Shown: one piece after another, positions 1,012 to 9,609 of the stretch
Layout: each line of letters begins with the position of its first letter
How positions within the stretch are numbered: the stretch's first letter is position 1
Source: a virus
Taxonomy: Duplodnaviria > Caudoviricetes
DNA length: 64,000 nucleotides
IMG/VR virus record: IMGVR_UViG_3300021091_000001
Span: 64,001 to 128,000 of that record
Strand: one strand, 5' to 3'
Notes under the pieces: generated by a model
What the model was told of the DNA's origin: nothing
The model's database searches: none
Seen by the model: the letters and a program-made list of their open reading frames with translations, nothing else
Made by a program: the position numbers and the translations under genes

Positions 1012-1686
1012 ATGCCCTCCTATTCTGACAATGATGATGATCTTTTTGAAGAATCCACAAATTCTTCGACCGATTCATCTTCATTTCATGATTTATTTGC
1101 TCACTCCAATTACTCTTCTGATACTTTTTCTAATTCTTTTGTAGAATCCACAAAAGATATACTTTCACCCAAGTCTATTGACTCTGATCAATTTCGTTAT
1201 CGTACCGGTATCGTTACTTCTTTCTATGAAGTTTGCAATCGGTTTTCGTTCGCAAATGATAATTTTTTAAGAGTTGAGTATGATTATCTCAACTCTATTT
1301 CTAACAATCATTTTAGCAAATTGCTTTATTTTGCTTTCTTAGAAGAAAGTATTATCAAACGCTTTTCTATTCAGAACTTTTTACGTGTTGTTATTGAAAC
1401 TGATAATAGCAAAGTATTTAAAGAAGCAGCAGAGCAACTTAAAATAAATGTCGATGACTTTTTTATTAGAGTTTATTTTGGTTCTATTTATAAACTTCTT
1501 AATCACGCAATAGACCGAAATATTGCTATATATGAAAAGCTTTGTACAGAACTTCAGAGACCACCAATGCAAGCTATTCTTGATAAGAATTATGATTCAC
1601 TAGATATTACTTTTGAATCACCTTCTTCTTATATTTTGAGAAGCTTTGATTCTATTAAAGAGTCTCTTGGTTTTAAAACTTTCTAG
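1012..1686 (+). CDS. hypothetical protein with acidic/Ser-rich N-terminus
   Basis: 224 aa ORF with RBS; in-frame CGG (Arg) at 1240. Confidence 0.75.
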   Translation: MPSYSDNDDDLFEESTNSSTDSSSFHDLFAHSNYSSDTFSNSFVESTKDILSPKSIDSDQFRYRTGIVTSFYEVCNRFSFANDNFLRVEYDYLNSISNNHFSKLLYFAFLEESIIKRFSIQNFLRVVIETDNSKVFKEAAEQLKINVDDFFIRVYFGSIYKLLNHAIDRNIAIYEKLCTELQRPPMQAILDKNYDSLDITFESPSSYILRSFDSIKESLGFKTF

Positions 1687-1698
1687 GAGGAGATATAA

Positions 1699-2094
1699 TT
1701 GTATCCTGAAAAGATTCCCAATTCTTTGACACCTTTGAATACTTTCAAGTTCAACTTGGAATCTTCACGTGATGTTAAAAAACAACTAGAGTCTCAAATC
1801 GCAAGTCTCGATGAACGTATTGAAAAGATCGTTGATCATTTTACAATCCAAGACATGCCGATTATACGTTTTATTCTTAATGTTTCTGAAGAACGTGAAG
1901 AACTTAAAAAAGTTTCTAGGGCATTGGATAGAATAGCAGATCTTATTCACGTTAAAAATGAACTACTTCCAAAACTAGAGGTAATCAAAATAGCGGAAAA
2001 AGATCCCAATTGGTTTGCATGGACTTTTGGTGATTTTGATTCTGATATTGATTCTGAATTACAAAACTTTACGGACGGAAATTTTGATGACTGA
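1699..2094 (+). CDS. hypothetical coiled-coil protein
   Basis: AGGAGG RBS, TTG start, 131 aa. Confidence 0.75.
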   Translation: MYPEKIPNSLTPLNTFKFNLESSRDVKKQLESQIASLDERIEKIVDHFTIQDMPIIRFILNVSEEREELKKVSRALDRIADLIHVKNELLPKLEVIKIAEKDPNWFAWTFGDFDSDIDSELQNFTDGNFDD

Positions 2095-3907
2095 TAATTT
2101 TAATTATACTCTTCTTTCTAAAGAAGACGGCACTTATGCTCTTCGGTCTGTTGTAACTTCTTTTGGCCTTGACCATGTGACTGACAAAGATATTGTATCT
2201 TTTTATACTACTTTTTCTCAATATGCTTCTTTTGACACTGGTCTTTTGCCTTTAGATGGTACTGGCATTCTTGCCATTCGCAATGCTGGTCCACATACTC
2301 AAGTTGTTGCTCAACATGCTCCTGGATTGTATTATATAAATTGGGGTAGTTTTGAAGGCGACAAGCAAGCTAAGGCATACTATGTCGCTCAACCTTATCG
2401 CATAATTATTGGCGACTTTAGAGATGGTAATCTTTTAGGCGCTAGAATGTTTTATTCTCCTGTGCCAATCACCTCTCCTCAAAATCAGCTCTATCATGTT
2501 AACCTTCCCAATATTAATTGCAAAGGTTATCGCGGCAATGCTGTAGGCTGGATTTGTCTTTATCATAAAGATGATTGGTCTCATCTTCCATTTAACGAAA
2601 AAGTATCACGTTTCATTGAACGTTGTTCTGGCGTAGAAACATACAACGATGCAAATATGAACGAGACAGATGGTCCTCGTTTCTATGATTCTTGCGGATA
2701 TCCTTCTTATATTACTGATCCCGTTCTTTGGCAAAAGAAGTCAGAGGAAGAGGGATATCAATGGACTTTAGATTCTTCTGTTTGGATTCCAGTAAAAGTT
2801 ACTGGAATTGATAATCAGGGTTGCCATAATCCCAAAGGTGAATTACTCACTTTGGGAATGGCTATCTTGGGAAACTATCAAGCTTATTATACAGATACTG
2901 AAATCCCCAAGATGTACAATATTGTTTCTCGTCTTGATTTTACTGTTAAGAACGACAACATAGCTGACTTCTTTAAAAAGTCATTTGCTTCTGCTCCCTC
3001 TATTTGGTCTCACACCCCTAAAGATAATCCTTATGCTTTCACTGTAGAATCTAGAATCAATAATTCTTCAGAAACCCTTCAGTTGAATTTTAATTCTGAT
3101 GAAGAAGATCCCCATAAGGCTGTTTGCAATAATTGTGATGAGGTCTTTGACTATGAAGTAGCTACTATCGATGCGTACGATGAAACTATTTGTCCTAGTT
3201 GCATTAATGATCGTTATGTATACGTAGAATCTGTAGGTAAATATTTTCATTGTGAAGATGAAGATCTTTATTATTCAGAACATGATGATAACTACTACCA
3301 TTCTAAGCACGATGTTTGTTTTCATTGTCCAAATTGTATGGTCACTTATGGTTATTCAGGTACCAGTGAAAAAGCCGTTGAGTATATTCACAATTTAACT
3401 CGTAAAGACAATTATTCTGAATTAATTTGCGCAGTTTGTTTTGATCGAAATATTGAAGAAAATGATCTTTCTTCTACTGAATGTGTTGTATGTAAGAAGA
3501 AAGTTATTACATCTGTTGGATGGAATGATGTTCATCCTACTGTAAGAACCATTGATCATGATGTAGATTCAAATACTTATACTTCTACTTATTCTACATT
3601 TTGTGAAAGTTGTTCTCCTAAGCACTTTGTTTGTCCTTGCGGAAAAGTTAAGTCAGACGATACTGAAGATTTTAATTCTTGTAGTTCCAGTATGATTTAT
3701 TCTGAGTTAGATGCTAATAATAAACTTGTTTTTACGGCTTCTGTTCATCAGTGCTGTGCAAGTTGTCTTTCAGCGCCTATTCTCCAAGATGGAGAACTAG
3801 TAGCTGCTTATGTCCCACCTCCAGAAGTATTTAAGCTTGTCGTCAATAATAAATTGTTTAATTCTACTGGAATTACTGTTATTCAGTCAGAAGATGGTTT
3901 ATTCTGA
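2087..3907 (+). CDS. prokaryotic E2-like (Prok-E2 family D-like) protein with C-terminal Cys-rich Zn-binding array
   Basis: LYHVNLPNINC...GWICLY resembles the 'PN..G.xC' E2-D core; many CxxC pairs in the C-terminal half; precedes JAB/E1/Ubl; start moved to ATG 2087, overlapping the upstream stop. Confidence 0.65.
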   Translation: MTDNFNYTLLSKEDGTYALRSVVTSFGLDHVTDKDIVSFYTTFSQYASFDTGLLPLDGTGILAIRNAGPHTQVVAQHAPGLYYINWGSFEGDKQAKAYYVAQPYRIIIGDFRDGNLLGARMFYSPVPITSPQNQLYHVNLPNINCKGYRGNAVGWICLYHKDDWSHLPFNEKVSRFIERCSGVETYNDANMNETDGPRFYDSCGYPSYITDPVLWQKKSEEEGYQWTLDSSVWIPVKVTGIDNQGCHNPKGELLTLGMAILGNYQAYYTDTEIPKMYNIVSRLDFTVKNDNIADFFKKSFASAPSIWSHTPKDNPYAFTVESRINNSSETLQLNFNSDEEDPHKAVCNNCDEVFDYEVATIDAYDETICPSCINDRYVYVESVGKYFHCEDEDLYYSEHDDNYYHSKHDVCFHCPNCMVTYGYSGTSEKAVEYIHNLTRKDNYSELICAVCFDRNIEENDLSSTECVVCKKKVITSVGWNDVHPTVRTIDHDVDSNTYTSTYSTFCESCSPKHFVCPCGKVKSDDTEDFNSCSSSMIYSELDANNKLVFTASVHQCCASCLSAPILQDGELVAAYVPPPEVFKLVVNNKLFNSTGITVIQSEDGLF

Positions 3908-3930
3908 ATCAACAAAATATTGGAGATTTT

Positions 3931-5625
3931 ATGACTAATCAACAAGAAACAACAAACGTCACCTTAAATGACCTTAATTATTTTTGGACTAAGTCTGGAG
4001 TTCCATGTTTTATGGCAACTCGAGACGATATTCAAGATGTAGTTCAGGCTCTTGGTTTTAATATTTATTATCTTATTTGCAATGTTGCGGAAGATAAAAA
4101 GAATGAAACCACAACTTATGTCAATGGTAAGAGTCAAACAACTACTTCTTATGTCACTAATATGAAGACCAAAATTGTCAAGGTTGTAAACAACTTTGTT
4201 GGTCATTCAATTACTGTTGTAGAAGATGAAGAAATTTATGATTTTACTCCAATACGTGAAATAGGCGAATATAATCTTCCTCCTATTCCTCGCGATATAG
4301 TTACTAAGCTCGATGAGTTCTTTAGACTTGTCGACGCACAGCATGGCACAGAGTCAATTGTCATATTGACCTTTGATCCTAATTTTGAAGATTCCCGTGG
4401 TTGGGGTGTTCTTGTTCCAGAACAGACAAATACTTCTGTTCACTGCAAGTACGACCCAGATAGCATTGTTGATCAAAAACCTGAGCATGTGATGATTGTT
4501 GGATCTGTTCACAGTCATCCCGGCATGCCTGCTTATGCATCTGGTACAGACCATGCTGATCAAGCAGATTTTGATGGCATTCATATTACTTATGGATGGC
4601 AGAAGTCTATTAATAACAATGCAACTCAATATCATATTGAGCTTCAAATGGCTGGATATTCTTGGACTCTTAAGCCAGATGATGTTTTTGAATCATTTGT
4701 TTACAATAAATCTCCCGATCCTCAGGTCGTAGAATGGAGCGAAAAAGTAAAAAAAGCATACCCCCCTCAGGGGGGTTCGGTTTCTCTAGTGGCTCACACA
4801 CCAGCACATTCGCTACATCAGACTCCTCCTCGGGACTTTATTCCAACTGGTATTACTAGTCCTTTATCAAAAGGAACTTCCACTTGGGAATCTACCAATT
4901 CTCCTCGTGTTTCTCAGTTTAATTCTCGTACTCAGAATTATCCTAACCCTCATGATGACGATGACCATATTGTCATAGCAGAAGTTCAAATTGAATCAGG
5001 CGGTTTTGCTTCATGTCCTTCTTGTAATTCTGAAGTGGCTTATTTTATTAATACTGTTCCATTTTACTGCGACGTTTGTGATATGCCTCTTTGTTTTCCT
5101 AATAACGCATATTCTGAGATAATTTCTTCTGCTGAAGAATATCTTAAAGAACGTAATCTTAAATCTAACTGCAATTATTATATTTGGACTAAAGATGATA
5201 ATGATGCAGATTTGTTAATGCGCATTAAAGAAAAAAATTACGTATCTGATTCTTCTGATTACATATCTTTAGACGCTCGTGTCGAAACTCTTGATGAATA
5301 TTATTACGAAGGTTTTTCTCACGAAAGATTAGTTTGTTGTGATCTTCCTATTGAAGAAATTTCTTATTGTACATGTTCTACTCCTGTTTATTATGATGAC
5401 GTCATTTCTTTTGATGTTGCTCATCCCCATAGTGTTTACGATTCAAACGATTCTTGTATAGAATGTGAATTCTATTACTCTAGGAATTGTAAGCCTTATC
5501 TACAAGCCATTGTAGATTTTGCGGCACGTGATCGTGTTATGGACGCTAAAATAACTGAGTGTGAGGACTTTATTCCGTATGAACGTTCTGCTGTCAAATA
5601 CGACTTCGACCGAGATTATTATTAA
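3931..5625 (+). CDS. JAB/MPN+ metallo-isopeptidase with Cys-rich C-terminus
   Basis: E(GTES)...HSHPGMPAYASGTD = HxHx7SxxD JAB motif. Confidence 0.88.
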   Translation: MTNQQETTNVTLNDLNYFWTKSGVPCFMATRDDIQDVVQALGFNIYYLICNVAEDKKNETTTYVNGKSQTTTSYVTNMKTKIVKVVNNFVGHSITVVEDEEIYDFTPIREIGEYNLPPIPRDIVTKLDEFFRLVDAQHGTESIVILTFDPNFEDSRGWGVLVPEQTNTSVHCKYDPDSIVDQKPEHVMIVGSVHSHPGMPAYASGTDHADQADFDGIHITYGWQKSINNNATQYHIELQMAGYSWTLKPDDVFESFVYNKSPDPQVVEWSEKVKKAYPPQGGSVSLVAHTPAHSLHQTPPRDFIPTGITSPLSKGTSTWESTNSPRVSQFNSRTQNYPNPHDDDDHIVIAEVQIESGGFASCPSCNSEVAYFINTVPFYCDVCDMPLCFPNNAYSEIISSAEEYLKERNLKSNCNYYIWTKDDNDADLLMRIKEKNYVSDSSDYISLDARVETLDEYYYEGFSHERLVCCDLPIEEISYCTCSTPVYYDDVISFDVAHPHSVYDSNDSCIECEFYYSRNCKPYLQAIVDFAARDRVMDAKITECEDFIPYERSAVKYDFDRDYY

Positions 5626-5645
5626 GACAAAATATAGGAACTGTT

Positions 5646-6392
5646 ATGGAAACTAAAAGAGTTGTATTGGTTGGAGCCGGAGGCATAGGCACTTGGCTTG
5701 CTCCTGGTGTTGTTCGTTTACTTGAGTGGAAGTATCCTGGTTCTGCTTTTATTATCGTCGATGGTGACAATTTTGAGCAGAAAAATTTAGAGCGTCAGTC
5801 TTTTACACAAATGGGAAACAAGGCTTCTGTTAAAGCATTAGAACTTTCTTCTCAGTTTACAAATACTCTTGTTATTCCAGTCCCTAAATGGGTTGTTTCT
5901 GACGATCATCCAGAGACAGATGATAATTCTAACAAGATCAAAGCTTCTCAACTTCTTGTTGAAGGAGATATTGTTCTTGCTGTTGTTGACAATTTTTCTG
6001 CACGTAAAATTCTTTTTGACGCTGCATCTAAATTAGACAACGTTGATGTTTTAACTGGTGGAAATGATGACGCTTTATATGGAAGTATTTATCATTACCG
6101 TCGTAGAAATGGTATAGACATTACTTCTCATCCAGTTGAAACACACCCAGAATACCAGAATCCGCCGGATCGTAATCCCGGTGAGATGTCTTGTCAGGAG
6201 CGAGCAGAAATAGAAGGTGGCACTCAGATTCTTGCCACTAATATGGCTGTTGCTTCTTATATTCTTGGTCGAATACAACACACTATAGTGTTCGACCAAA
6301 ATCCAGAACAGTCCGAGATTTATTTTGATCTAGGGCTTGGCATGGCACAACCCTACAACCGTATGGTTGAAAACGCATCACTTAATGTATAG
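5646..6392 (+). CDS. ThiF/E1-like Ubl-activating enzyme
   Basis: GAGGIG nucleotide loop, DGD..EQKNLERQ, KA, VDN..AR, candidate catalytic 'SC' followed by Q...N. Confidence 0.92.
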   Translation: METKRVVLVGAGGIGTWLAPGVVRLLEWKYPGSAFIIVDGDNFEQKNLERQSFTQMGNKASVKALELSSQFTNTLVIPVPKWVVSDDHPETDDNSNKIKASQLLVEGDIVLAVVDNFSARKILFDAASKLDNVDVLTGGNDDALYGSIYHYRRRNGIDITSHPVETHPEYQNPPDRNPGEMSCQERAEIEGGTQILATNMAVASYILGRIQHTIVFDQNPEQSEIYFDLGLGMAQPYNRMVENASLNV

Positions 6393-6403
6393 GAGAAATC
6401 AAA

Positions 6404-6655
6404 ATGGAAATGAATTCCATGCAGAACAATACAAATGCAGCACAGGGCGTAGCTAATCTTCGCTATGGTGTTTACAACCAGCCAGCTCCAGTTTCTGGCA
6501 AGACTGTTGGCGAAGTTCGTCAGCAGTTCTCCAAGCTTTGGGGAATCAGCGCAGACGCCATTGCCTACAAGGGCAAAGACAAGCTTGACGAAAATTATAT
6601 CATTCAGCCCGGCGATAACGTTGAATTCCATCGCCGTGCTGGTGAAAAGGGCTGA
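6404..6655 (+). CDS. ubiquitin-like beta-grasp protein
   Basis: GKTVGEVR...GDNVEF...AGEKG; 83 aa with C-terminal Gly (GxKG as in Prok-Ub/PRTRC protein C); directly after E1. Confidence 0.85.
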   Translation: MEMNSMQNNTNAAQGVANLRYGVYNQPAPVSGKTVGEVRQQFSKLWGISADAIAYKGKDKLDENYIIQPGDNVEFHRRAGEKG

Positions 6656-6670
6656 TTAAGCTCTACATTC

Positions 6671-6764
6671 GTGGGGGGGGATTTCGGCTTAAATGCCGTT
6701 CAATCTAACATTATAGATGATTTTAATCTGAAAAATGTTAGAATGGTCCCCCCCCACTTTTTTT
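6671..6764 (+). terminator. terminator-like multibranch RNA
   Basis: 11-bp GTGGGGGGGGA/TCCCCCCCCAC stem enclosing two inner hairpins, followed by T7. Confidence 0.6.
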
Positions 6765-6804
6765 ATAAAGCCTACAGTTAGTTACTTTATATGAAGAGGA
6801 CTTT

Positions 6805-8406
6805 ATGCTCCACCAACAAATCCAACTTGGTATTCCTGCCATATGGATTAAAACTACAGACCCTTTCCGTATAGAAGAAAATATTTTATCTATTTCAAAA
6901 AGAGATTTTTTTTCTATAACAAAGGATGGTTTTTCACATTATTCTGATAATGTTTGGAAACCCATTCTAGTATCTATTTCTAACCCTGAAGATTCTTCTT
7001 CTCCAATAATTAAAACGACCACAGATTTTTCTGTGTCTTTTGATTTTCTTTTTAATTCTCCTGACTTTAAAGATCGTCCAAAAACGTTTATTAACCACCT
7101 AGTTAGTGATCCAAATTCTTTTGCAATGATGTTTGCTCCTTTTATTGCAAATCTTCATTCTGATTATCGCAATTCTTTTAAAAAAGACGATCTTTCTTTA
7201 CTTCCTCTTCAAATAATTGTCATATCTTCTGCCAATCCTCCAGAAGACATTGCTCATCTTTTCTATGTTCACGAAGATACTTATCCTTCTTTGGAAGAAC
7301 TTACTGATATTCTCTATCATATGCATTCTTCTACAAATGGAGAAATAGTAGATTCTGCCAAAACAAAAGATATAGCTCGTTCTGGTCTTGGTTTAACAGA
7401 GTCTAAGTTTATTAACTTGTCTTTGCTTTCTGTTTTAGAATGCGGAACTATCGATTCTGCTTACATTTATTCTGCTAAAATGGCAGATGTCAAAAAGAAT
7501 GGCATTCTTGAAATTCTTAAGCCTAAAATAACATTTGATAATATTGGCGGTCTTGATAACATTAAGAATGTTATTTTTAAAAATCTTTATTTTTGGAATA
7601 ATCCCCAAGAAGCTGAAAAATTTGGTATTCAACCAATAAGACGTTTGCTTACCGTTGGTATTCCTGGCACTGGTAAGTCTGCCATTTGCGAAGCAACTGC
7701 AAATGCTTTAGGTCTAGATCTCGCTCGCACTGGTGTCAGTCAAGTAATGAATTCTTTCATTGGCCAGTCAGAAGCTAATATGCGAGCAGTTTTTCAGCAG
7801 ATAAAAGCAATGGCTCCACTTTGCGTTTGGATTGACGAGTTCGGTCGTGATATGTCTGGTGGCCAGTCGTCTAGTCACGTAGACGGTGGCACCACAGACC
7901 GTGTTCACGGCGAGTTCTTGACAGGCTTGCAGGAACTTCCTGACAATGTCTTTTTGATGTGTGCTGCAAATCAACTCAATCACCTTAGGCCAGAGATGCT
8001 TCGCGCAGAACGCTTTGATAAGATTTTCTTTGTTGGTTTGCCTTCATTTGAAGAGCGAATTGAAATTATCAAAATTTATCTTCCGGAAAATAATTATGAT
8101 TATCAAGCCGTTGCTCATGCTACCAAGTATTTTACTGGTGCAGAAATTAAATCTCTTATCAAAGAAGTGAACTTTAATGTAGTATCTACTTATCATCGCT
8201 CTGTTACTGATAAGGATATTATTTCTTACGCTCCTAGCATAAGGAATATTCTTTGGAATAAAGAACGCGACATGATTAAAGAGTTATATCGCTACGCCTA
8301 TGAGAACTGGGATTGGGCTTCTAATTTCCAATACAATGAAATAGATGATATACTTGGTAAAGCTCCAGCAAAGTCACAAGTTTCGTCTTGGGACGTAAAG
8401 ATATAA
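6805..8406 (+). CDS. AAA+ ATPase (Ycf46-like, degenerate N-terminal domain plus one intact AAA domain)
   Basis: FDNIGGL, Walker A GIPGTGKS, Walker B VWIDE, SRH AANQ...PEMLRAERFD. Confidence 0.92.
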   Translation: MLHQQIQLGIPAIWIKTTDPFRIEENILSISKRDFFSITKDGFSHYSDNVWKPILVSISNPEDSSSPIIKTTTDFSVSFDFLFNSPDFKDRPKTFINHLVSDPNSFAMMFAPFIANLHSDYRNSFKKDDLSLLPLQIIVISSANPPEDIAHLFYVHEDTYPSLEELTDILYHMHSSTNGEIVDSAKTKDIARSGLGLTESKFINLSLLSVLECGTIDSAYIYSAKMADVKKNGILEILKPKITFDNIGGLDNIKNVIFKNLYFWNNPQEAEKFGIQPIRRLLTVGIPGTGKSAICEATANALGLDLARTGVSQVMNSFIGQSEANMRAVFQQIKAMAPLCVWIDEFGRDMSGGQSSSHVDGGTTDRVHGEFLTGLQELPDNVFLMCAANQLNHLRPEMLRAERFDKIFFVGLPSFEERIEIIKIYLPENNYDYQAVAHATKYFTGAEIKSLIKEVNFNVVSTYHRSVTDKDIISYAPSIRNILWNKERDMIKELYRYAYENWDWASNFQYNEIDDILGKAPAKSQVSSWDVKI

Positions 8407-8415
8407 AGGAATATT

Positions 8416-9033
8416 ATGTCTATTGAAGAAAATGTCGAAGAATTTCTCTCTACTTTAGAACCAGATCAGCAAGACGATAAGCCAAAGTATGCAAATACTC
8501 TTTATAAGAAATGGTTTAAGTCTAAGACTCAAAGTGGTTTTGTTTCTATTCGTCCTTGGTTTCAAGGAATGAAATTTTCTATTGATATTGGAAAAACCAA
8601 TTCATCAGGAAAACTAGAAAGTAACACAAACTGTTTTGTTGATGCAATAGATTTTGCCGCTTATCTTCGTAGTATTGTTACAAACACAGCTTCTTTTAAT
8701 TTTCCCGTAAATGAAAGAATGGGATTAACAACTCCTGAATCTTTTGTTTCTTATGGTGGAACCACTTTACAATCTGGTCAGCAAATCAGCAGAATTTTTA
8801 AATGCCAACACTGGCAAAGTGGTGATAATGTAGATTCTTCTGCTTTTATTTGGAAAGCTGGCCATTTTAAAGCTAGGAAATCAGATACTGGAGCTTTCAT
8901 TCCTGATATGAAATCACCATTGTCTGTAGATTCGATTAAAGTTACTCGTCAAGATATTGTTAGTATTTCATATCTTTTGGATATGTCTTTGATTTCTTAT
9001 GTAACTAATAACACAGAATGGTATGATGCCTAG
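8416..9033 (+). CDS. hypothetical protein
   Basis: 205 aa, RBS, operonic with the AAA+ gene. Confidence 0.8.
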   Translation: MSIEENVEEFLSTLEPDQQDDKPKYANTLYKKWFKSKTQSGFVSIRPWFQGMKFSIDIGKTNSSGKLESNTNCFVDAIDFAAYLRSIVTNTASFNFPVNERMGLTTPESFVSYGGTTLQSGQQISRIFKCQHWQSGDNVDSSAFIWKAGHFKARKSDTGAFIPDMKSPLSVDSIKVTRQDIVSISYLLDMSLISYVTNNTEWYDA

Positions 9034-9416
9034 TGGAAGAAAACATATTTGATTCAGCTGATACTTTTGATTCTTTAAAGAATAATCTTCATGAACTTGT
9101 TATTGCTTTAGCTTCTAGAGTTGAAGAACGTCTGCAAGATTTGGATGAAGCAATTCAAAAGCTTGAAAAACAGATTGCTACTCTTATTCTTGGTTTTGGA
9201 GAACAAGCTGTTAATATGGAAGGACTTCTTGCCCAGATTAAATTCTCCAGTCCTGAAGCCCAAAAAGAGTTCATGAATACTATTTCTGCTAGTAGAAAAC
9301 AAATGCTTGAGACAATGAAGGAAGGCGCCAGTGGTTTATTGGCTGGAGAAAGTCCAGGAATTGCCTCAGCCGTTGAAGACTTGGTTAACGAAAAGTTATC
9401 TGACTCAGCCGATTAA
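9033..9416 (+). CDS. hypothetical coiled-coil protein
   Basis: GTG start overlapping the previous stop; heptad pattern. Confidence 0.75.
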   Translation: MEENIFDSADTFDSLKNNLHELVIALASRVEERLQDLDEAIQKLEKQIATLILGFGEQAVNMEGLLAQIKFSSPEAQKEFMNTISASRKQMLETMKEGASGLLAGESPGIASAVEDLVNEKLSDSAD

Positions 9417-9609
9417 TGGCACTTCTGTTCTTTTTGTAGACAAGCAGAATATTATTATATTGAATAATATTTATTATCTGCAAAAGATTTATTCTATTGC
9501 AAAGTTTATTTATCCAGAGATGTTATCTTTACATTTATCTTCTCTACCTATTTCTGATTCGTTAAAAAATAGGGTCATTTCTTTTGAATCTATATCTATG
9601 GAGACATAA
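9331..9609 (+). CDS. possible small hypothetical protein, start uncertain
   Basis: Fills the gap and its stop overlaps the next ATG, but there is no clear RBS. Confidence 0.35.
   Translation: MVYWLEKVQELPQPLKTWLTKSYLTQPINGTSVLFVDKQNIIILNNIYYLQKIYSIAKFIYPEMLSLHLSSLPISDSLKNRVISFESISMET

Follow-up and report, generated by a model that had tools for sequence, protein, structure and literature searches.

Gene layout at the locus

The 64,000-nucleotide (nt) stretch of DNA analysed here, referred to as the window, spans bases 64001-128000 of the IMG/VR record IMGVR_UViG_3300021091_000001 and carries near its left end a run of genes that resembles a prokaryotic ubiquitin-like conjugation system: an E2-fold protein (P1), a JAB/JAMM metallopeptidase (P2), an E1-type enzyme (P3) and a ubiquitin-like protein (Ubl; P4), followed by an AAA+ ATPase (P5). 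The record is a complete phage genome of 202,043 bp with direct terminal repeats, which bears out the phage origin assumed in the initial annotation of this DNA, and the window also contains phage-typical genes for DNA polymerase, primase, DnaB helicase, ribonucleotide reductase, and for tail or structural proteins. The list of open reading frames (ORFs) agrees with the initial annotation that the five genes occupy positions 2087-8406 on the plus strand in the order given above. The features of this core region, in window coordinates, are as follows.

1699..2094, plus strand: p-1, a small protein of 131 amino acids (aa), candidate extra component (from the ORF list)
2087-3907, plus strand: P1, 606 aa, described from an AlphaFold2 (AF2) model, fold searches and invariant residues
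2087..3091, plus strand: N-terminal domain of P1, predicted E2/UBC fold, with candidate catalytic Cys157 at nt 2555-2557 and an LPNxN motif at nt 2504-2518
3104..3907, plus strand: C-terminal half of P1, predicted multi-zinc module with seven CxxC motifs
3931..5625, plus strand: P2, an N-terminal domain, a JAB/JAMM metallopeptidase domain (Pfam), a Q/P/T-rich linker and a Cys-rich C-terminal domain
5646..6392, plus strand: P3, a minimal single-domain ThiF-type E1 of 248 aa, with candidate catalytic Cys183 at nt 6192-6194 in the motif EMSCQER
6404..6655, plus strand: P4, an 83-aa beta-grasp Ubl with a disordered N-terminal stretch of 15 residues and a free C-terminus ...HRRAGEKG, Gly83 at nt 6650-6652
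6671..6765 (stem 6671-6757), plus strand: hairpin of a G-run and a C-run with a U-tract after it, in the gap from P4 to P5 (sequence and folding)
6805..8406, plus strand: P5, a classic-clade AAA+ ATPase with one ATPase domain (Pfam AAA and AAA_lid_3) and a unique N-terminal region of about 235 aa

According to the ORF list, the plus-strand ORFs are tightly packed from p-2, the gene before p-1, to P4. From p-1 onwards the spacing is tight or overlapping, the 3' end of p-1 overlapping the start of P1 by 8 nt, whereas a gap of 149 nt separates P4 from P5, with P6 directly after P5. The gap holds the hairpin, which has a minimum free energy of -52 kcal/mol (z -5.8) and an equivalent, GC-rich and at the same position, in all five related loci that were folded; the window contains just two hairpins with G and C runs of five or more, the other at 52832-52858. 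The hairpin is likely to be an intrinsic terminator or a 3'-end stabiliser. A scan for sigma-70 promoters and terminators was uninformative, and this long-loop hairpin escaped it. Because the hairpin precedes P5, the tight unit comprises p-1, P1, P2, P3 and P4, and P5 begins past a probable terminator. The single five-gene operon proposed initially is thus upheld in that the genes are consecutive and the first four tightly spaced, but not in the inclusion of the AAA+ gene, which lies beyond the terminator-like hairpin.

The ubiquitin-like protein, the peptidase and the E1

Neither P4 nor P1 matches any model in Pfam, PHROGs, NCBIfam or PADLOC, and both were therefore examined by structure. The AF2 model of P4 (predicted local distance difference test score, pLDDT, 81) has the order beta-beta-alpha-beta-beta-beta plus a flexible tail, and Foldseek relates it with a probability of 1.0 to ubiquitin, ISG15, NEDD8 and a ubiquitin-like protein of Bacteroides fragilis. 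Alignment across the PDB with VIA places FUBI (Z 9.0), the sulfur carrier TtuB (8.8) and MoaD (8.0) beside it. The look-alikes of P4 found by a protein language model belong to the ThiS family, and the ThiS Pfam model gives no match to P4 even at an E value of 10. The C-terminus is almost fixed: among 120 cluster representatives of P4, 117 stop exactly after ...GEKG, two carry tails of two residues (NI and SL) and one is truncated, and homologs from distant loci that are 21-26% identical end in ...GQKG followed by the stop codon. That the terminal glycine is held at the stop codon across such a distance marks it as the C-terminus that gets activated. A homolog of the Ubl, protein P0345, comes from a contig of 193 kb labelled Flavobacterium sp. 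by NCBI, which may be a hint of the host or a binning error.

P3 matches ThiF (PF00899) at 43 bits against a cut-off of 28.1 and is the sole E1 in the genome. Its nucleotide-binding loop GAGGIG and the residues R50 (Arg finger), K59, D115 (catalytic Asp) and C183 are invariant, and its best named matches include PRTRC_ThiF, MoeB, ThiF and the SAMP E1. The EMSC.ER motif, with its cysteine, also occurs in the 29%-identical ThiF protein of Bacillus phage vB_BceM_WH1. When phmmer and profile searches were run with the E1 against PDB sequences, the N-terminal loop alone aligned and the C183 region was left uncovered, and a search of plasmids with the E1 for annotated PRTRC cassettes returned unannotated ThiF genes only.

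P2, the sole JAB protein in the genome, scores 28 bits against the Pfam Prok-JAB model (cut-off 25). Its JAMM residues, E141 and H194-x-H196-x7-S204-xx-D207 (motif at nt 4510-4551), are invariant in nine orthologs. Searches of GenBank phages with tblastn gave no match for either P2 or P1.

P1 and two further E2-fold paralogs

P1 belongs to an isolated family. Residues 1-335, compared with 1.84 billion cluster representatives, recover 196 clusters, formed at 50% identity, at E<=0.001, 171 of them below 1e-30; the relatives that we inspected are metagenomic or phage sequences, none with a Pfam domain, and a Pfam scan of 52 family members one by one identified no E2 family. In the alignment of these 52 sequences, with identity down to 36%, N142, N144 and C157 are invariant, and the resulting motif LPNxN...GWxCLY resembles the HPN...C signature of E2 enzymes. 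On this conservation, Cys157 rather than the non-invariant Cys145 is the candidate catalytic cysteine.

The AF2 model of residues 1-335 is of high confidence (pLDDT 93; predicted template modelling score, pTM, 0.90) and consists of a small N-terminal sheet, a helix, a beta-meander, a long loop bearing C157, and further helices, which is the UBC topology. Among AlphaFold Database clusters it retrieves an entry named 'UBC core domain' (E 2e-6, template modelling (TM) score by hit 0.63) and two entries named 'PRTRC system protein B' (TM-by-hit up to 0.65). In the ESM Atlas it reaches TM 0.65/0.62 to a viral cluster of 150 members, 13% of which carry Pfam Prok-E2_D, and when VIA, which is independent of Foldseek, compares the model with 48,161 PDB representatives, E2s fill most of the top 30 rows. 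P1 thus has a predicted UBC/E2 fold with a conserved cysteine after an (H/L)PN-type motif, although its resemblance to solved E2 structures is low (Z up to 4.4).

The C-terminal half of P1 (residues 340-606) is highly variable among relatives, yet its cysteine pairs are kept. Weak ESM Atlas leads connect it to LIM and Prok-RING_2 domains (scores 0.82-0.84), and it is possibly a built-in substrate adaptor. Homology between the Cys-rich C-terminal halves of P1 and P2 was considered and rejected on comparison.

Two further E2-fold genes lie downstream on the same strand.

10813..11994, plus strand: P10, second E2-fold protein, Prok-E2_D-like, with Cys157 in the motif PN-x7-C (nt 11254-11283)
11991..13217, plus strand: P11, third E2-fold paralog, with Cys182 in the motif NF...G.LCRP

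Scans of the whole genome with Prok-E2_D and PRTRC_B matched these two adjacent proteins and not P1. All the Prok-E2_D matches (PF14460) are below the cut-off of 25 bits: P10 scores 16.7-17.6 bits (E 3e-4 in the scan of its own genome, 0.0065 in Pfam), P11 13.3 bits (same scan, E 0.0055), and P1 goes unmatched. The closest ESM Atlas clusters of P10 are viral Prok-E2_D proteins, with a feature score of 0.95 and matching structure. Profile comparison by hhalign relates P10 to P11 with a probability of 97.9% (E 4e-13), and the profile of the P1 N-terminal domain to P11 with 95.5% (E 1.5e-8) and to P10 with 60.7% (E 8e-5). Invariant among orthologs are ERPPF, W.PW, PN-x7-C and GWN.D in P10, and PIPWQ.Y, NF...G.LCRP and WNSG.N.D in P11. 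Taken together, the profile homology and the motifs indicate that E2-fold proteins number three in this phage and that all of them keep an Asn...Cys motif. By sequence, P1, P10 and P11 are distant relatives of Prok-E2_D and not members by the curated cut-off; the earlier assignment to E2 family D therefore fails for P1, which lacks a Prok-E2_D sequence match, and finds weak backing in P10 and P11. The claim of a complete set of E1, E2-fold protein, JAB peptidase and Ubl with C-terminal glycine holds, every catalytic residue being conserved.

Conservation across related phages

The order p-2, p-1, P1-P6 is kept in 14 related IMG/VR contigs, several of them 200-210 kb long, as far as each contig reaches. 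Conservation is highest for the E1, at 68-87% identity, and for the Ubl, at 63-84%, and P1 and P2 are 40-57% identical to their counterparts in the relatives; the faster divergence of P1 and the JAB protein is as expected for target-facing parts. p-1 lies directly upstream of P1 in all 14 relatives; its Pfam matches are weak, sub-threshold ones of coiled-coil type and nothing more.

Two much more distant contigs, L017 and L018, were reached through the weakest listed relatives of P1. Both carry, in order, a 125-aa protein that overlaps P1, P1 itself, the JAB gene, an extra gene, ThiF, a Ubl of about 80 aa and a gene of about 160 aa, after which L018 continues with a 549-aa AAA+ gene and a 188-aa gene, and L017 with a P5-like protein cut by the contig end. 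Identities to the proteins described here are 42-50% for the E1, about 39% for P1 and, as given above, 21-26% for the Ubl. BLASTP confirms the homology of p-1 (E 8e-11 and 1e-6), P1, JAB (JAMM intact), E1, AAA+ and P6 in the distant loci and finds no match for their flanking genes at an E limit of 0.01. The extra gene between JAB and E1 (L018 11663-12478, L017 11731-12144) encodes the Cys-rich C-terminal domain of P2 (CC...CxC...CxxC...C) as a gene of its own, and this fission supports the Cys-rich domain as a distinct part of the system.

A search of GenBank phages for DNA of near identity gave no match, and at least 24 metagenome runs from lake water contain DNA of the phage.

The AAA+ ATPase and an HslV-like peptidase

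Two further features bear on what may happen downstream of tagging.

8416..9033, plus strand: P6, 205 aa, always directly after the AAA+ gene (ORF list)
16362..16973, plus strand: HslV/proteasome-beta-like N-terminal nucleophile peptidase, 203 aa, starting MTTIIGV and containing GAAGD and GTGS motifs

P5 matches the AAA family (PF00004) at 83.5 bits (E 2e-23), and its best named NCBIfam matches are CDC48, PAN and FtsH. It has a Walker A motif (GIPGTGKS), a Walker B motif (WIDE), a pore-loop FIG and an Arg-rich second region of homology (RPEMLRAERFD), as classic-clade AAA+ enzymes do. P5 falls in the clade of PAN, Mpa and Cdc48, with a pore loop of the substrate-translocating kind, and it is possibly an unfoldase. 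A full-length P5 homolog (34% identical) adjoins the Ubl system in L018, where the flanking genes are without detected homology. Members of the same family (phrog_8638) also occur in Mycobacterium, Rhodobacter, Agrobacterium and other phages with no E1, JAB or Ubl genes nearby. P5 is therefore a candidate member of the system: its kept adjacency, its clade and its pore loop speak for membership, and the terminator-like hairpin ahead of it and the presence of its family in phages lacking Ubl genes speak against it.

P6 has no match in Pfam, PHROGs, NCBIfam or PADLOC. It is 59-84% identical in relatives, and in L018 the AAA+ gene is again followed by a P6 homolog (blastp E 2e-18). In Agrobacterium phage JP1 and Rhodobacter phage RcTiptonus, the next gene after the AAA+ gene was compared with P6 as well and proved not to be homologous.

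The HslV-like protein stays below cut-off in both model sets, with 19.9 bits against 22.4 for Proteasome (PF00227; E 6e-4) and about 20 bits against at least 137 for the NCBIfam HslV models (E 3.6e-4). Its closest GenBank relative, at 47% identity, is the 'ATP-dependent protease subunit HslV' of Actinomycetia phage DSL-LC01. The gene is present in four of five related genomes, and HslV-family genes are common to many unrelated phages without Ubl genes; phage proteasome homologs have been described before (PMC8665760). The GenBank phage genera that have the P5 AAA+ family and those that have HslV-like genes barely overlap, which also counts against P5 as a part of the Ubl system. The HslV-like peptidase is a possible downstream partner of the Ubl system. 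Just after it, a 108-aa ORF (17002-17328) has non-significant matches of zinc-ribbon and ClpX N-terminal-like type (E 0.45-0.86).

Neighbouring genes and reading frames

Upstream of p-1, the ORF list gives one more plus-strand gene in the packed series.

1012-1686, plus strand: p-2 (ORF list)

Scans of p-2 against Pfam, PHROGs, NCBIfam and PADLOC gave no match. Between the E2 paralogs and the HslV-like gene, an SSB-like gene (13825-14262; SSB, single-stranded-DNA-binding protein) and a gene of the uracil-DNA-glycosylase (UDG) superfamily (14252-15001) lie on the same strand, so that the plus-strand block mixes DNA-metabolism and Ubl genes.

Beyond P6, the ORF 9033-9416 shares its last 86 nt with a second ORF, 9331-9609, which is read in the +1 frame; this shared part contains no CGG. 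Both translations are conserved in relatives, the overlapping parts included, and the cause could be programmed frameshifting, a true start further downstream or mere conservation of the DNA. Elsewhere in the window, in-frame CGG codons with T, G or A as the next letter at 2144 (P1), 4831 (P2), 1240 (p-2), 9726 (the gene at 9609) and 10972 (P10) read as ordinary arginine with no frame break; the codon at 2144 is the invariant Arg20 of P1, with 586 further in-frame codons after it.

Comparison with known systems

By gene content, the closest systems are operon type 6d of Iyer, Burroughs and Aravind (2006; PMC1779556) and the Prok-E2_D/PRTRC group. As in type 6d, four separate genes encode a single beta-grasp Ubl with C-terminal glycine, a JAB protein extended by an additional N-terminal domain, a short E1 of one domain and an E2-fold protein whose cysteine is conserved; unlike type 6d, the phage set has no Pfam family reported for the accessory helical protein among the proteins scanned. 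For the E1 the best named match is PRTRC_ThiF, for the JAB protein PRTRC_A, and for P10 Prok-E2_D and PRTRC_B; these, and the 'PRTRC system protein B' entries retrieved with the P1 model, point towards the Prok-E2_D/PRTRC group. With the PRTRC models themselves (NCBIfam TIGR03734-03742), however, PRTRC_A reaches 16.8 bits against a cut-off of 101.8, PRTRC_ThiF 30.9 against 144.75 and PRTRC_B 11.8 against 131.45, the last on P10 rather than P1; PRTRC_C has no match, and ParB_N matches nothing in the 202-kb genome at E values up to 1. Because there is no ParB and the model scores fall far below the cut-offs, this is not a PRTRC cassette. The PRTRC-type designation given at first therefore survives as a statement about the nearest relatives, which are of the Prok-E2_D/PRTRC-like group, and not as an identification of the cassette. 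The phage system also departs from 6d and PRTRC in its setting, a lytic-type jumbo phage backbone instead of a plasmid or an integrative and conjugative element, in its three E2 paralogs, in the long zinc-rich C-terminal extensions of P1 and P2, and in the coupled small protein, AAA+ gene and P6 that travel along.

Bil and CBASS, bacterial systems with such a parts list, are proven conjugation pathways (PMC11601596). Bil (BilABCD) likewise combines Ubl, E2, JAB and E1 in the conflict between phage and bacterium, and since it has no separate E3, its E2 is thought to choose the target (PMC11601596). It differs in E1 architecture, P3 having a single ThiF domain in 248 aa, unlike the E1 of Bil, and in ownership: Bil is a bacterial defence that tags phage, whereas the system described here belongs to the phage. 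Type II CBASS Cap2/Cap3 has the E1/E2 chemistry and a JAB peptidase in common with it, and P3 has weak PADLOC matches to E1-E2 models. In Cap2, however, E2 and E1 are fused, the protein conjugated is the cGAS-like enzyme itself and there is no free Ubl, whereas the phage has separate genes and a dedicated Ubl. Bub (6E/DUF6527) is another diverged prokaryotic Ubl pathway of E1, E2 and peptidase, but one that lacks catalytic cysteines (using Ser/Tyr oxyesters), has fused Ubl-E2 or JAB-E1 proteins and relies on a DUF6527 serine protease; the phage set has invariant cysteines and unfused genes. By architecture it belongs to none of these three.

Within phages, the tail assembly proteins I (Ubl) and K (JAB + NlpC) of lambda and T1 also pair a beta-grasp Ubl ending in glycine with a JAB protein (PMC1779556), but they lie inside a tail gene cluster without E1 or E2. 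The cultured Bacillus jumbo phages vB_BceM_WH1 (gp215-gp216) and Edson have related E1 proteins, 27-29% identical to P3. In vB_BceM_WH1, a JAB gene directly precedes the E1 gene as it does here, and the cysteine motif of the E1 is common to both; the ThiF gene (gp216) is followed by a NADAR-domain gene, and no recognisable E2-fold or Ubl gene stands beside the JAB-E1 pair. gp215 (L002 4501-7312 region) is an unannotated JAB with the JAMM motif HSHNTMGAFWSGTD and an hhalign probability of 95% to P2, and gp213 was considered as a possible E2 and rejected. Our literature search, of incomplete coverage but inclusive of a review of jumbo-phage comparative genomics (PMC7824862), returned no complete phage-encoded E1/E2/JAB/Ubl system; the nearest case was that of E1 homologs alone in an Asgard archaeal virus.

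Proposed conjugation pathway

On the evidence of sequence and models, we consider it probable that the phage encodes its own working ubiquitin-like cascade, from E1 to E2 to target lysine. From the folds, motifs, invariant residues, gene order and conservation that we observe, we infer each chemical step, the targets, which may be host or phage proteins, and the timing. P3 would bind P4, adenylate its free Gly83 and take the Ubl onto Cys183 as a thioester. The Ubl would then pass to the cysteine of an E2-fold protein, that is, to Cys157 of P1 and probably also to Cys157 of P10 and Cys182 of P11, and the E2 would move it to target lysines by aminolysis. A separate E3 is not evident, and target choice may be supplied by the three divergent E2 paralogs together with the zinc-rich C-terminal modules of P1 and P2. 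The JAMM peptidase P2 would remove the tag and, in the rare Ubls with two-residue tails, expose the glycine. The mechanism is inferred by analogy, from family knowledge of Bil, CBASS and Bub (PMC11601596). Its weakest link is the proposal that P5 acts on tagged proteins. A self-contained ubiquitin-proteasome-like pathway, in which host or phage proteins given the Ubl by three target-specific E2s would be handed to the PAN/Cdc48-like P5, perhaps with P6, for unfolding and on to the HslV-like peptidase, so that a bacterial virus would carry out tag-directed proteolysis, is in our view decidedly unlikely.

Several observations weigh against a working cascade. For P1, there is no sequence-level match to any E2 family, a Foldseek search of the PDB with its model returned nothing significant, and the VIA alignments to E2s, which span residues 40-235, are weak at Z 3.5-4.4. 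One profile alignment pairs the P10 cysteine with the non-invariant Cys145 of P1 and not with Cys157. The catalytic role of Cys183 in P3 is deduced from sequence, and the Bub systems indicate that Ser or Tyr can replace Cys in such pathways (PMC11601596). P4 ends in ...KG, not in ...GG. Conserved synteny in a phage backbone is not proof of functional linkage, and no RNA run containing this DNA is on record.

Alternative explanations

The biological role of the genes could be takeover of the host, exclusion of rivals, counter-defence or assembly. With the same chemistry, the set could be a phage-carried defence or exclusion module, which would tag the proteins of rival phages as Bil tags the tail fibre, in place of remodelling the host. 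The characterised bacterial relatives (Bil, type II CBASS and probably Bub) all serve anti-phage immunity, and the fast evolution of E2 and JAB and the several E2 paralogs suggest an arms race. Yet the genes hold a fixed backbone position throughout a deep clade, including relatives at about 40% identity, which argues against a mobile accessory defence island; they adjoin the SSB and UDG genes on the same strand, and PADLOC matches are limited to weak E1-domain and IetA-type AAA ones. We regard defence or exclusion as unlikely. A role in counter-defence, in which the JAB peptidase would strip Ubl or cGAS conjugates of the host while the phage E1, E2 and Ubl compete with or mis-tag host immune proteins, draws on the existence of Ubl-based host immunity that hits phage structural proteins (10.1101/2023.09.04.556158) and on the weak similarity of the E1 to CBASS Cap2 models. 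For that purpose, however, a deubiquitinase alone would suffice, and the full set with its conserved, dedicated Ubl argues for a tag of the phage's own, which makes counter-defence quite improbable.

Sulfur transfer calls for a different reading of the E1 and the Ubl, by which the E1 would thiocarboxylate the Ubl, as for ThiS, MoaD and TtuB, to serve cofactor, tRNA or DNA modification with little or no conjugation. The E1 is indeed a minimal, MoeB/ThiF-like single domain with MoeB, ThiF and the SAMP E1 among its named matches, and ThiS, TtuB and MoaD are among the look-alikes of the Ubl. Sulfur transfer has no use, though, for three E2 folds with conserved cysteines or for an intact JAMM peptidase, and of the neighbouring proteins that were scanned none was a rhodanese, ThiG, MoaE or TtuA-type partner; together, these points make a sulfur carrier very improbable, and the failure of the ThiS model to match the Ubl and its KG ending where GG would be looked for tell in the same direction. 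Least credible of all is an assembly chaperone like lambda I/K, with the Ubl and JAB acting in virion morphogenesis and the E2 folds as non-catalytic scaffolds. The Ubl and JAB pair has a precedent in phage tail assembly (PMC1779556), but the module lies outside the structural gene region and includes an E1, and the Asn...Cys of its E2-fold proteins is invariant, unlike inactive RWD/UEV-type folds. The preferred reading remains that of a conjugation cascade which the phage runs on its own account.

Significance

Kits of this type were known before from bacterial anti-phage defence; as a conserved part of a phage genome, we found no description of one. Until now, the demonstrated use of Ubl conjugation in prokaryotes has been as a weapon of bacteria against phage (Bil and type II CBASS). 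If our reading is true, a complete and deeply conserved set in the backbone of an abundant clade of lake jumbo phages would reverse this picture, with the virus itself using the tagging, and protein tagging on the phage's own account would parallel what many eukaryotic viruses do. The compactness of the system, with an E1 of 248 aa, an 83-aa Ubl that needs no processing and three E2s, suits it to reconstitution, and makes it a natural setting in which to study target choice by E2s that have no E3. A proven coupling of the system to the AAA+ enzyme and the HslV-like peptidase would make it the first case, among prokaryotes, of a virus that tags proteins and degrades them.

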